DNA of 64,000 nt from Candidatus Micrarchaeota archaeon (GCA_964643685.1 CAZXTN010000001.1:96001-160000); one strand, 5' to 3'; shown: positions 17,937 through 58,516, counted from the first letter of the stretch. Notes: generated by a model from the sequence alone, not told the origin. Translations and numbers: made by a program.

Positions 17937-18222
17937 CTACAATTTGTTGAACAAATTGTATTAAACAGACCACACAAGGTAGTCTTATTCAAACTCTTTC
18001 AGAGTTTGAAATGTTTTTGCCTTCGCAAAAAAGCTTTGCTTCAAAGAAGGGTTGAAACAAAAATTATAAAAGACCCCTAAGAGAAGCACATGTGGTCTGC
18101 GAGGGAATCAGAAATTCCCTAGAAATCAATCGCCTAACGGCTCAAACGTTTTTCCCTAACAGGAAAAACTGAAAGGGGCAGCAAGTCCCCTGCGTTTCGG
18201 TGAGGATTCAGGCTGGGGCGCT
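17937..18222 (+). ncRNA. Candidate multi-hairpin structured element, copy 2, bounded by a repeat of the tRNA-Asp 3' end
   Basis: Same hairpin series as 16925-17115; GGCTGGGGCGCT at 17927-17938 and 18211-18222. Confidence 0.55.
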
Positions 18223-18251
18223 TTAGCTTTAAAGCAAAAAAGATACGAATA

Positions 18252-18265
18252 GAAAAGTATATATA
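18252..18265 (+). promoter_or_regulatory. BRE/TATA promoter of the rpoH operon
   Basis: GAAAAG-TATATATA about 60 nt upstream of the rpoH start. Confidence 0.55.
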
Positions 18266-18326
18266 CTTGGAAAGCAACAAAAGATACACCTATTTTTTTT
18301 CTATTTTTGGGCTGGGTGAAGTTAAT

Positions 18327-18560
18327 TTGAGCAAAAAAAAGATACTTGAGCATGAATTAGTGCCATTGCACGAGGTTTTACCAGAAGAAGAAGTTAGTCT
18401 TATTTTGAAGAAGTATGGAATTGCAAAAGAGCAGTTGCCTAAAATTTTATCAGATGATCCTGTTGTAAAAGCAATAGGAGCTAAAGAGGGGCAGGTTCTT
18501 AAGATTACAAGAAAAAGCCCAACTGTTCATGAAAGCATTTATTATCGTTTAGTGGTTTGA
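18327..18560 (+). CDS. rpoH: RNA polymerase subunit Rpo5 (H)
   Basis: HELVPLHEVL, QLPKIL.DDPV, ITRKSPT...YYRLV; TTG start after GGTGA. Confidence 0.96.
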   Translation: MSKKKILEHELVPLHEVLPEEEVSLILKKYGIAKEQLPKILSDDPVVKAIGAKEGQVLKITRKSPTVHESIYYRLVV

Positions 18561-18577
18561 ATAAAGGTGTTTGAAAA

Positions 18578-20050
18578 GTGTATCATTGGGAATTAGTTGA
18601 AGCATTGTTTAAAGAAAATCCATTGGTTAAGCAGCATATTGATTCTTATAACGAGTTTGTGAATAACAAAATTCACACTATAATACAAGAGTTAAATGAA
18701 GAGCAGAGTGAAAAAGAAAGAGTTAGGATAAAGTTTCATAAGGTAAGGCTTGAAAAACCAACTGTCATTGAAGCAGATGGTTCTAAAAGAAAAATAACTC
18801 CAAATGAAGCAAGGTTAAGGAACAGGAGTTACTCTGCATCTATGTATGTTGATTTAAGCATTATTGAAGAAGGAAAGGAAATTGACAGGGATGAGATTTA
18901 CATAGGAGAAATACCAGTGATGGTAAAATCAGATTTATGTCATTTGAAAGGATTGTCAAAAGAAGAGTTAATTGAAAAAGGAGAAGACCCATATGAGCAA
19001 GGGGGTTTTTTCATAATAAGCGGAAGCGAAAGAGTGCTTGTTGCAATTGAAGATCTTGCACCTAATCGTTTAATCATCTCAAAAGAAAACAAAGTAGGAA
19101 AAGAAATTGTAAGTGGAAGAATAACTTCTGTTAGAAAAGGATTCAGAGCAAGAACAGTGCTTGAAAGAAAAGAAGATGGAATAATGCACATTAGTTTCCC
19201 TGCTTCTCCTAAAAATTTAAACTTGTTCATGGTTTTAAAAGCACTTGGGTTTGACACCCCTAAGAAGATAAAAGAAGCTTTCTCAGATGACAAGCAAGTT
19301 ATAAACGACATTCTTTTAAATTTAGAGCAAATTGAAGCTAAAAACCAAGAAGAAGCAATTGACTACATTGGAAAAAAACTAGCAGCAGGCCAAATGGAAG
19401 AGTATAGAAAATCAAGAGCAAGATACGTGTTAGACAACTTCCTGCTTCCTCACTTAGGAGTAAGGGAAGAAGACAGGAAGAAAAAAGCGTATTACCTAGC
19501 ATCTGTAACTGAAAAAATGATAGAAGTAGCACAAGGAAAAAGAGAAGAAGACGACAGAGACAATTATACTAACAAAAGGTTGAAAATAACAGGAGTGCTC
19601 ATGGAAGAACTGTTTAGAACAGCCATAAACGCATTCATCAAAGACATAAAATACCAAATAGACAGGGCACATACAAGAGGCAGAAAAATGCAGATAAAAA
19701 CACTTACAAGACCAGATGCAATGACAGACAGGATAAGATTTGCAATGGGCACAGGACAATGGGTAGGTGGAAGAACAGGAGTTTCTCAATTGCTTGATAG
19801 AACAGCTTACATGGCAACAGTGTCACACTTAAGAAGAGTCCTCTCACCTTTGTCAAAAACCCAACAGCATTTCGAAGCAAGGGACTTGCACCCAACTCAC
19901 CTTGGAAAAATATGCCCAAACGAAACGCCAGAAGGACAATCAGTAGGGCTTGTTAAAAACCTTGCAATAGGCTGCTTCATATCCACAAAAGAAACACAAG
20001 GCTTGGAAAAAGAATTTTCAAAAATGGGCGTGGAATTAATAAAAAAATAA
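18578..20050 (+). CDS. rpoB2: RNA polymerase subunit B''
   Basis: QHIDSYNEF, GGFFIISGSERV, GRTGVSQLL, CPNETPEGQSVGLVKNLA. Confidence 0.97.
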   Translation: MYHWELVEALFKENPLVKQHIDSYNEFVNNKIHTIIQELNEEQSEKERVRIKFHKVRLEKPTVIEADGSKRKITPNEARLRNRSYSASMYVDLSIIEEGKEIDRDEIYIGEIPVMVKSDLCHLKGLSKEELIEKGEDPYEQGGFFIISGSERVLVAIEDLAPNRLIISKENKVGKEIVSGRITSVRKGFRARTVLERKEDGIMHISFPASPKNLNLFMVLKALGFDTPKKIKEAFSDDKQVINDILLNLEQIEAKNQEEAIDYIGKKLAAGQMEEYRKSRARYVLDNFLLPHLGVREEDRKKKAYYLASVTEKMIEVAQGKREEDDRDNYTNKRLKITGVLMEELFRTAINAFIKDIKYQIDRAHTRGRKMQIKTLTRPDAMTDRIRFAMGTGQWVGGRTGVSQLLDRTAYMATVSHLRRVLSPLSKTQQHFEARDLHPTHLGKICPNETPEGQSVGLVKNLAIGCFISTKETQGLEKEFSKMGVELIKK

Positions 20051-20076
20051 AAACACGAAAAAGAAGTGAAGATTAA

Positions 20077-57748: not shown

Positions 57749-57751
57749 ACC

Positions 57752-57759
57752 TTTATAAA
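57752..57759 (+). promoter_or_regulatory. TATA box of the rpl7ae operon
   Basis: TTTATAAA just after the gltX stop, about 95 nt before the ATG. Confidence 0.6.
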
Positions 57760-57852
57760 TGACAAAATTGAAAAAAATAATACTCATTCTCAAAAAAAGC
57801 CAATGAGTTTTAAGCAGCGTAAAAAACTGCAATGAAAAAGGAGGAATTAAAA

Positions 57853-58221
57853 ATGGCAAGCCCATACGTGAAATTCAAAGTACCTAAAGAAATAGCAGAA
57901 CAAACATACCAAGCAGTTGAAAAAGCAAGAGACACAGGAAAAATCAAAAAAGGAGTAAACGAAGCAACAAAAGCAGTTGAAAGAGCAACAGCAAAACTAG
58001 TTGTGATAGCAGAAGACGTAGCACCACCAGAAATAGTTGCATACCTGCCAATACTCTGCGAAGAAAAGAAAATACCCTACACATTCATCCCAACAAAAAA
58101 AGAACTAGGAAAAGCAGCAGGAATAAAAGTAGGAACAACAGCAATAGCAATAATAGAAGAAGGAAGCGCAAAACAACTTGTTGAAAACATTGCAAAAAAA
58201 GTCGAAGAACTGAAAAAATAA
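57853..58221 (+). CDS. rpl7ae: Ribosomal protein eL8 (L7Ae)
   Basis: [30 protein letters not shown]. Confidence 0.97.
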
Positions 58222-58236
58222 GGGGATGAATAAAAA

Positions 58237-58446
58237 ATGGCAGACGACGCAGTACCAGCACAAGTAATGGAAATAATAGGAAAAACCGGCGTACACGGCG
58301 AAATATGGCAAGTCATGGTAAAAATACTAGAAGGAAGAGACAAGGGGAGAATCATAAGAAGAAACGTAAAAGGACCAGTAAGAAAAGACGACTTGCTAAT
58401 GCTAATAGACACAGAAACAGAAGCAAAACCAATAAGAGGACGCTAA
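58237..58446 (+). CDS. rps28e: 30S ribosomal protein eS28
   Basis: [16 protein letters not shown]. Confidence 0.96.
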
Positions 58447-58449
58447 ATA

Positions 58450-58516
58450 GGTGAAAATAAATGAAATCAATCGCAAAAGAAGGATATGAAAGCTCAAGAT
58501 TTCATTTTCTTACTAT
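58450..58516 (+). repeat. Copy of rpl24e RBS/start fused to TCAATCGC...GCTCAA hairpin module
   Basis: GGTGAAAATAAATGAAAT versus GGTGAAAGCAAATGAAAT (58524-58541); stem AAATGAAATC/GATTTCATTT. Confidence 0.8.

Follow-up and report, generated by a model that had tools for sequence, protein, structure and literature searches.

A dispersed double-hairpin repeat, probably spreading, at gene starts and in tRNA trailers of a Candidatus Micrarchaeota genome

A 64,000-nucleotide (nt) stretch of a Candidatus Micrarchaeota archaeon assembly (GCA_964643685.1, CAZXTN010000001.1:96001-160000), referred to below as the window, contains three copies of a short motif that belong to a dispersed family of structured repeats, with about 20 copies in each carrier genome. 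The genome to which the window belongs, G000, comprises 695,104 bases in 12 contigs, is 91.75% complete and has a G+C content of 36%; the second carrier, G002, represents another genus of the same family of archaea. Each repeat unit combines two short boxes with two hairpins, and in one subfamily the second hairpin includes the start codon of the gene downstream. The repeat is probably a recently spreading, transposase-less double-hairpin element of the intergenic DNA of both genomes, one that would be tolerated at gene starts because its insertion rebuilds the start.

The pattern that drew attention to the family, GAAATCAATCGC separated by 4-25 nt from GCTCAA, has exactly three matches in the window, starting at 18122, 31588 and 58463, all on the plus strand. 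Dinucleotide-preserving shuffles produced a mean of 0.00 matches, and none of 100 reached three. The 12-mer alone, allowing up to two mismatches, matched seven times versus a shuffle mean of 5.3, which is the chance level, and consequently only the three exact copies count. A sequence-only reading of the window had reported these three dispersed copies and had described the motif as sitting on duplicated ATGAAAT gene starts. The duplication is as described at the Nudix gene (TGGTTACAAAATGAAAT and TGGTTAAAAAAATGAAAT) and at rpl24e (GGTGAAAATAAATGAAAT and GGTGAAAGCAAATGAAAT), but copy 1 (18122-18154) has neither an ATG nor a duplicated start. Likewise, the closing stem attributed to every copy is present in copy 2 (AAAATGAAA/TTTCATTTT) and copy 3 (AAATGAAATC/GATTTCATTT) and is limited in copy 1 to four or five A-T pairs, the strand 3′ of the motif pairing better there within a local hairpin (GTTTTTCC/GGAAAAAC, 18148-18169). 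The GC..GC bracketing of a variable loop was correctly seen, except that the variable part is a true hairpin in most other members. The expectation that downstream genes begin ATGAAAT is borne out by the gene-start copies, in which the duplicated sequence is AAAATGAAA(A), and not by copy 1. A wider pattern search, as that reading had proposed, recovered the exact motif and, in addition, genome copies beyond the three in the window. Taken as a whole, the earlier interpretation is partly supported; its suggestion of a micro-element is supported by the roughly 20 dispersed copies in each carrier genome, the patchy phyletic distribution, the lineage-specific insertions and the empty orthologous sites.

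From 5′ to 3′, the unit consists of AAAN, the box TCAATC, a hairpin termed P2 that is always closed by GC/GC, the box CTCAAAC, and a second hairpin, H3, formed by a strand X′, a loop and a strand X, for a total of about 60-90 nt. P2 and H3 are real helices. The stem of P2 occurs in compensatory variants (GCGAC/GTCGC, GCAGT/ACTGC, GCC/GGC, GCGC/GCGC, GCGAT/ATCGC, GCATTCT/AGAATGC). In a model-fitted alignment of 39 matches, 98.6% of 142 P2 cells are paired, compared to 74.5 ± 2.1 in shuffles, and 40 cells carry two-sided changes, compared to 11.0 ± 3.8 (a level that none of 500 shuffles reached), while controls with the strands slid against each other are 19-48% paired; as the alignment leans toward the model, this evidence is strong rather than unbiased. 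A stem of at least 7 base pairs (bp) directly follows CTCAAAC in 37 of 43 copies as opposed to 18% of shuffled flanks, and the H3 sequences differ greatly between copies yet stay complementary. The boxes TCAATC and CTCAAAC, in turn, are opposed without any Watson-Crick option. To the left of TCAATC, the bases repeat the 3′ end of X, the distal strand of H3, and can thus pair with X′ as well; this alternative helix of left X with X′, denoted P1, reaches at least 6 bp in 20 of 43 copies compared to 19% in a cross-copy control. The identity of X differs among subfamilies, being AAAATGAAA(A) in one and AAAATCAAAA, AAATTAAAA, GCGTAAAC, GGCAAAA, AGGAAAAAC and more in others. Wherever the left and right X differ from each other, X′ matches the right one better, suggesting that H3 travels with the element, whereas the left X belonged to the target. 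Within arrays, the X of one unit doubles as the left X of the next. The resulting direct repeat at the flanks spans 3-5 nt in trailer copies, 8-12 nt, or up to about 22 nt (the L37ae copy of G002). The targeting of GAAAT proposed earlier is therefore too narrow a description: the sequence that recurs on the left is a copy of X, which forms the 3′ strand of H3 within the element itself.

An exact search of G000 recovered a further copy upstream of a YchF-like GTPase gene, with a slightly changed tandem copy behind it, and a scan for the two boxes returned 30 co-occurrences, 16 of which were judged by eye to be family members. A looser pattern applied to 41 genomes matched 15 times in G000, 11 times in G002 and 0-2 times elsewhere, with 0-1 matches per genome for the reversed pattern as a control. 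A covariance model (R1) built from five family members yielded, at E ≤ 1, 22 matches in G000, 20 in G002 and none in G001, G003 and G004, which represent three other genera of the family; at E ≤ 0.01, it matched in just two of 31 genomes of the class, again G000 and G002. The distribution is patchy, since G003, the nearest relative of G000 by YchF (75% identity), S28e and L24e, is free of the element. In public collections, the exact pattern occurs at 64 viral loci and at least 118 genome loci. Among the 182 viral and genome matches listed, a single one (L229) has P2, NTTT and H3; it is the same sequence as a G002 locus, and the remaining public matches are thus attributable to chance. A metagenome scan gave 12 loci with one real member (L289), a four-unit array situated between convergent genes. 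By location, 21 of the 22 G000 copies lie outside every predicted open reading frame (ORF), although a crude ORF call puts the coding share of the genome at about 90%, and the lone copy inside one falls in a doubtful 118-aa ORF. Units stand alone or form arrays of two to four, and decayed and truncated copies are present beside intact ones. A separate observation comes from another family of the order (genome G005), where a contig starts with a tandem of TCAATCGCTCCGCTCAAAC and the hairpin GTTCAACTTCT-ACG-AGAAGTCGAAC (L005, 1-80); it shows the plan of the unit in a third lineage and scores 25.6 bits (E 0.013) with the model.

Comparison of orthologous sites indicates that the insertions are recent. 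The rps28e-rpl24e junction, claimed to be normally tight and to be interrupted by one copy, is in fact interrupted: the spacer, taken as the distance between BLAST matches, is 92 in G000 versus 6-25 in 15 of 17 relatives from the order, and the remaining two have 56-62 of unrelated sequence, such that the site is empty in all 17. In G002, the empty site reads GGTGAAATAAATGAAATG. The YchF start is empty in four of four family relatives (G003 reads ataatcATGAAAATAGGC), the SecE start in four of four relatives, and the start of a JAB-domain protein gene in all three that have an ortholog. Between rpl3 and rpl4, where G000 carries a truncated copy, the spacer is 43 nt in G000 versus 6, 6, 18 and 17 nt in the four relatives from the family, each of which has an empty site. 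Conversely, the aIF2-gamma, topoisomerase and L37ae starts that are filled in G002 are empty in G000. The Nudix gene has one clear ortholog, in G004, which is element-free and in another context. None of the examined sites is filled in both G000 and G002. The SecE, JAB and NifX-like copies of G000 are 86-88% identical to one another, and the aIF2-gamma copy of G002 is 80% identical to the SecE copy of G000; host proteins of the two genomes are 45-63% identical. Between the two genera, the elements resemble each other much more closely than the host genes do. Together, the patchy distribution, the empty sites, the coexistence of young and decayed copies and the arrays argue for a spreading repeat rather than an inherited regulatory site.

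The subfamily found at gene starts precedes, in G000, the genes for the Nudix protein, L24e, SecE, the JAB-domain protein, a NifX-like protein and the YchF-like GTPase (two in tandem); further G000 members are degenerate at the 5′ end on contig C7, diverged at C7:11431, and truncated at rpl3-rpl4. Its G002 members precede aIF2-gamma, a topoisomerase (two in tandem), L37ae, a surface protein and others. In these copies, the right X is AAAATGAAA(A) with the true ATG, the left X holds a second ATG, and the H3 loop of 11-25 nt contains GGAG or GGTGA, a Shine-Dalgarno (SD) site. Their homology covers the full unit, starting with the 5′ box and running up to the ATGAAA(A)T on the right; similarity ceases at that point and at the left ATG. 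From this left, or decoy, ATG runs an upstream ORF (uORF) of 19-25 codons that ends between −7 and +1 of the true ATG in seven of seven G000 copies, in none of which is the decoy in frame with the true start. Across 13 gene-start copies, the uORF is open to −8 to +1 of the true ATG in 10 (one G002 copy stops at −8), compared to merely three of 13 for the other informative frame. At the JAB gene, the TGA of the upstream gene overlaps the decoy ATG and the TGA of the uORF overlaps the true ATG, forming a chain of ATGA couplings. Since uORF registers differ and P2 lengths are not multiples of three apart, the peptide itself is not what is preserved. The pairing of X′ with the decoy and with the true start is predicted to be within about 1.5 kcal/mol in six of 13 copies and within about 4.5 kcal/mol in nine of 13.

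Two gene-start copies and one truncated relative lie in the window, all on the plus strand. Copy 2 begins with the left X AAAATGAAA (31583..31591), a former or decoy start with its ATG at 31586-31588, followed by the core TCAATC-GC-(17 nt)-GC-TCAAAC (31592..31624; 26.6 bits and E 0.008 with the covariance model). Its H3 pairs the anti-start strand TTTCATTTTTT (31625-31635) through an 11-bp stem and across a 21-nt loop with the right X AAAAAATGAAA (31657-31667), which contains the true ATG, at 31662, of a Pfam-identified NUDIX protein (domain E 1.4e-20). The uORF of 23 codons (31586..31657; MKSIANKRHEGSNFHFLSVKMDG) stops 7 nt before that ATG. Copy 3 lies in a ribosomal gene cluster identified by Pfam (L7Ae 57832-58221, S28e 58237-58446, L24e 58535-58717). 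Its left X, AAATGAAA (58459..58466), is a putative former rpl24e start with an ATG at 58461-58463 and its own GGTGA at 58450-58454. The core, TCAATC-GC-(17 nt)-GC-TCAAG (58467..58498), scores weakly in the model (17.0 bits, E 0.69) because of its long loop and changed 3′ box. H3 (58499..58541) comprises the anti-start strand ATTTCATTT (58499-58507) in a 9-bp stem, a 25-nt loop with GGTGA at 58524-58528, and the right X AAATGAAAT, with the true rpl24e ATG at 58535-58537 (Ribosomal_L24e, E 2.8e-18). The 25-codon uORF (58461..58538; MKSIAKEGYESSRFHFLTIKKGESK) ends in a TGA that overlaps this ATG (ATGA). The truncated fourth copy, between rpl3 and rpl4 (35299..35342), lacks the 5′ box and P2; in it, a 3′-box-like AATCAAAC is followed by the X′ strand TTTCATTT, by an SD-bearing loop that includes AAGTGA, and by the X strand AAATGAAA, which holds the rpl4 ATG. 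As an aside, the coding start of rpl24e (58535-58560; codons MKCSF) can itself fold into AAATGAA-ATG-TTCATTT, a small hairpin spanning the gene's ATG that is probably an accident of the codons. A promoter reading of the TATAA found in some H3 loops was discarded, as it sits at −20 to −16 from the ATG, too near to serve that gene.

Copies without an ATG are found in arrays, in 3′ intergenic regions and in the long, structured trailers that follow tRNA genes. Copy 1 of the window, on the plus strand, belongs to a set of four paralogous, roughly 100-nt units in G000 that align over its whole span (18102..18205), and is a composite, "type IIa" unit in the trailer of a tRNA-Asp gene. It consists of an upstream hairpin AGGGAAT/ATTCCCT (18102-18120), the core (18126..18147; 28.1 bits, E 0.004 with the covariance model) made of TCAATC (18126-18131), P2 as GCC-TAAC-GGC (18132-18141) and (C)TCAAAC (18141-18147), an H3 of GTTTTTCC-CTAACA-GGAAAAAC with an 8-bp stem (18148..18169), and a downstream hairpin GGGG/CCCC (18175-18190).

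The tRNA neighborhood has features of its own. The tRNA-Asp (GTC) gene (17808-17937) has a T-loop intron of about 55 nt with a clear bulge-helix-bulge, TTC[AAA]AGTG...CACT[ACT]GAA, and was missed by ARAGORN and by the Rfam gathering search, a partial match (E 0.0084) being all that appeared. Its 3′ end, GGCTGGGGCGC (17927-17937), is repeated 284 nt downstream (18211-18221), preceded there by GGTGAGGATTCAG, a sequence similar to GGTTAGGATTCAG of the D-arm region; the structured trailer, including copy 1, lies wholly between the two occurrences of GGCTGGGGCGC. A tRNA gene with anticodon CAT (16520-16634) has an insert in the D-loop region, and its final 16 nt, ATCCGGCCCCCGGCAC, reappear as ATCCAGCCCCCGGCAC some 60 nt farther downstream (16696-16711), which could be a 3′-end duplication as at integration sites or, alternatively, an intron-forming mimic. 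Conserved hairpin modules come after tRNA genes in the window (at 16926-17110 and 17938-18045), with TACAATTTGTT-GA-ACAAATTGTA immediately behind the tRNA and then the hairpins TTCAAAC...GTTTGAA and TTTTGCC...GGCAAAA. Such post-tRNA hairpin modules also flank several trailer-type copies elsewhere in G000, and in two copies, the core and H3 reside inside the 3′ strand of the first post-tRNA hairpin. Outside the window, a short array downstream of a small zinc-ribbon gene (G000:C2:27340-27460, minus strand) reads TTCAAAC, GTTTCATTTA-CTTGCG-TAAATGAAAC, TTAATC...TTCAAAC, GTTCCACTTA-CTTGCG-TAAGTGAAAC, TCAATC, with compensatory changes between the hairpins of its units. Just past the 3′ end of the 16S rRNA (G000:C2:39697), TCAATCGAATTTTTAACGAGTTGCTCGAA after GATCACCTCCT resembles both boxes, possibly by chance.

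How could such a repeat settle on start codons without harm? On the spreading-repeat reading, a copy would integrate beside a sequence identical to X, placing X on both sides of the core. If the target is ATGAAA(A)T, the element would supply both an SD site and an ATG, and the reading frame would continue on the right. The old start, now on the left, would become a decoy that pairs with X′, which would otherwise sequester the new start; transcribed first, the decoy would be positioned to capture X′. With the uORF stop abutting or overlapping the new ATG, translation of the host gene would probably be kept by coupling. Suitable sites are plentiful, as about 15% of long G000 ORFs begin with ATGAAA and AAATGAAA occurs 358 times. 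Insertions elsewhere in genes were presumably lethal and lost, leaving the gene-start subfamily visible at starts only; selection is most simply the explanation of that restriction.

The route of insertion is a more tentative matter. Variable flank repeats (3-22 nt) and the failure to find a transposase point to integration dependent on homology or microhomology rather than to classical transposition. One scheme, which we put forward with less than even confidence, is integration at X-identical sites by homology or microhomology, for example of a circle excised between two X copies. Searches of G000 and G002 for the Y1 transposase (PF01797), DDE_Tnp_1 (PF01609), rve (PF00665) and IS110-type (PF01548) families gave no matches, within bounds set by completeness (91.75% for G000, 80% for G002), and PF01797 was without a match across five genomes of the family. 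The tyrosine recombinase model (PF00589) had no match in G000 and two on one G002 contig, and that for the TnpB zinc ribbon (PF07282) had below cut-off matches only, one of them in G000. The absence of PF00589, which would include XerA, from the 91.75%-complete G000 merits mention in itself; a control search was positive in 14 of 14 reference genomes.

Several observations pull the other way from a recently spreading repeat. The gene-start copies are always sense-oriented, their uORF is kept open, and two boxes of 6-7 nt are nearly invariant across two genera while all else varies, each of which fits a selected RNA function. As ordinary transposition, the process is contradicted by flank repeats that are not of fixed length, and six Pfam families searched in G000 did not disclose a mobilizing enzyme. 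Neither presence/absence polymorphism nor an excised form was seen: when four sets of contigs were compared to window positions 17400-32400, two sets were short and identical, two were distant relatives, and none of the joints or gaps listed lay at 18126 or 31592. Among 760 helix positions, some of which are artefacts of helix extension, the mismatches are three G-T, 11 A-C and six others; without a G-T excess over A-C, this asymmetry test backs neither a sense-strand RNA nor a DNA reading. Lastly, the relatedness of copies inflates every count given for the family.

Sense orientation and near-invariant boxes beside covarying P1, P2 and H3 are what one would expect of a cis-regulatory RNA module, possibly mobile and kept for its function. 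In such a module, P1, the 6 × 6-7 loop of UCAAUC and CUCAAAC, and P2 would form a binding pocket; in the bound state the decoy would hold X′ and free the true start, and in the unbound state H3 would close over the true ATG, or vice versa. The X/X′/X layout is that of a riboswitch P1 with its expression platform, both folds have similar predicted energies, and in three copies (L078, L087, L014), A-to-G changes in the left X keep G-U pairing with X′. However, the similar energies are automatic because X is duplicated, and many copies oppose a P1 of 4-5 A-T bp to an H3 of 8-9 bp and therefore cannot switch. Moreover, the host genes in G000 and G002 are of unrelated function, certain copies sit between convergent genes or within tRNA trailers, and the examined orthologous sites are empty in relatives, none being filled in both genomes. 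No Rfam family was matched: Rfam 15 gave no motif match at the gathering score and none at E ≤ 1 for 58380-58600, and noise alone at the YchF locus (E 0.34-0.42) and around copy 1. We consider such a switch unlikely. Of the decoy-start regulator imagined at the outset, the anatomy survives, with a decoy ATG that pairs with an anti-start strand able to pair with the true start as well, and the regulation is unsupported by conservation at orthologous genes.

A distinctly less probable notion is that the element guides itself, free of any transposase, through X′ pairing with a single-stranded target and directing integration next to it. For one subfamily, the target would be the start consensus AAAATGAAAA, and the UCAAUC/CUCAAAC loop would act as a catalytic core or as one that recruits a host enzyme, such as an RNA-splicing or repair nuclease plus ligase. 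Guide-mutated variants colonizing new targets would then account for the covariation of X and X′ between copies.

It is very improbable that the units are RNA-processing signals or intron-like inserts, cut or excised by the tRNA-splicing endonuclease or another RNase, separating cistrons or restoring the mRNA. Many tRNA genes of G000 bear introns, and non-canonical ones abound; several copies sit in tRNA trailers, and loss of the insert with one of its terminal direct repeats would restore the original sequence. Yet a 3-4-3 bulge-helix-bulge is impossible, as by inspection none of the six opposed loop positions can pair (U-C, C-A, A-A, A-A, U-C, C-U); a genuine example is visible in the nearby tRNA-Asp T-loop intron. 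In addition, 15-25 nt separate X′ from the 3′ repeat, and an open uORF would be pointless in a spliced-out insert. Still less credit attaches to functional genes for peptides of 19-25 residues (MKSIA.../MKINR...FHF...). Their ATG ORFs do have an upstream GGTGA in copies 2 and 3, they are open in the 10 of 13 gene-start copies mentioned, and the two window peptides differ by conservative replacements, with a single synonymous change at Leu (TTA to CTT). Against this, the boxes are read in differing registers (TCA-ATC as S-I versus ATC-AAT-C as I-N-R/H), P2 lengths of 4, 6, 11, 13 and 17 nt do not differ by multiples of three, copy 1 and all trailer and array copies lack an ATG, the common FHF merely reflects the anti-start TTTCATTTT, and six uORF peptides had no Pfam match. 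Finally, a duplex DNA site for a transcription factor or another DNA-binding protein, which two short conserved TCAA-containing intergenic boxes might suggest and which the sequence-only reading had named as one possible refutation, or else a chance repeat, has almost nothing to recommend it: the boxes lie between 8 and 35 nt apart, and in every case the intervening DNA is self-complementary and shows compensatory changes, which fits a folded single strand rather than a duplex site, and chance is excluded by the shuffles (0/100) and by reversed-pattern controls of 0-1 per genome versus 15 and 11.

Among known systems, the mitochondrial hairpin and double-hairpin elements appear to be the closest in form and behavior, a likeness of kind, without sequence homology. 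In excerpts of PMC2800124, which cites Paquin et al. (2000) on such elements, those of sponges and Allomyces are described as small, intergenic, clustered, patchy and enzyme-less repetitive or double-hairpin sequences. As far as those excerpts go, the resemblance extends to one or two hairpins, dispersed as well as clustered copies, a compact genome, patchy lineages and no encoded enzyme. The archaeal family has the two adjacent hairpins, the intergenic location, the arrays and the patchiness by which that class, one of form and not of homology, is defined. Set against the same excerpts, it differs in residing on an archaeal chromosome, in its two invariant single-stranded boxes, in being flanked by a copy of its own hairpin's distal strand, and in a subfamily that sits on start codons and carries an SD site and an ATG.

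Transposable elements of the miniature inverted-repeat type (MITEs), and repetitive extragenic palindromic (REP) sequences or bacterial interspersed mosaic elements (BIMEs) with their REP-associated tyrosine transposases (RAYTs), are treated in excerpts of PMC10969869 and PMC3733652. The present family resembles MITEs in its many dispersed copies and its presence/absence differences between relatives. Unlike MITEs, its ends (TCAATC... and ...AAATGAAAA) are not mutually inverted, the inverted repeats (X′/X and P2) being internal; its flank repeats, 3 to about 22 nt long, do not amount to a fixed-length target-site duplication; and a cognate transposase was not found among six Pfam families in G000. 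Like the present family, MITEs and REP/BIME sequences are short, non-coding, structured, multi-copy and mostly intergenic, often co-transcribed with neighbors; REP/BIME sequences are marked by a conserved tetranucleotide, GTAG or CGTC, at the palindrome's foot and come with a gene for a Y1 RAYT. The boxes here are TCAATC and CTCAAAC with no GTAG/CGTC head, and PF01797 is the model that was without a match in the five family genomes. Rickettsia palindromic elements lie in-frame within host coding sequences and are translated as part of the host protein. They too are palindromic selfish repeats of a reduced genome that leave the gene product functional; in the present case, the repeat lies outside the ORF, the start is duplicated, and the insert is read only as a uORF of its own. 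Both IS200/IS605-type elements and group II introns choose their targets by base-pairing, and the internal X′, complementary to the sequence beside the insertion point, is reminiscent of them. Relative to IS200/IS605, however, no TnpA was found and TnpB was seen below the model cut-off only, the pairing is 8-12 nt rather than 4-5, and the target is duplicated; relative to group II introns, no intron-encoded protein was found and Rfam recognized no ribozyme domains. A Helitron/IS91-like reading, prompted by the 5′ TC and a hairpin near the end, was rejected for want of a CTRR end. In erm-type leader-peptide attenuators, translation of a uORF acts through alternative hairpins that hide the SD site or ATG of the next gene. 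The short uORF, the alternative hairpins and the ATGA overlaps recall these attenuators and stop/start coupling, but here the peptide is unconserved and lacks a known stalling motif, and the arrangement sits on a dispersed repeat rather than in one operon. In the literature searched, neither an element like this from DPANN archaea nor a start-duplicating and start-replacing repeat was described, a result that cannot prove that none exists.

The reduced genomes of DPANN archaea are thought to be poor in selfish DNA and in regulators. Here, about 20 structured repeats inhabit a 0.7-Mb genome that is about 90% coding, some of them within packed ribosomal-protein operons. For annotation, the copies create false small ORFs, shift apparent starts and lengthen spacers that serve to mark operons. 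Were the boxes to bind a factor, the repeat would be a mobile translational regulator. Should movement be guided by X′, it would represent a minimal targeting device, for DPANN archaea a new class of insertion element guided by nucleic acid, and a natural device for swapping the translation start region of a gene. As a spreading repeat, the family would illustrate a route to harmlessness that the literature searches did not bring up: landing on a start codon with its own SD site and ATG, having its anti-start strand neutralized by the very start that it displaced, and keeping ribosomes flowing into the host gene by way of the uORF.

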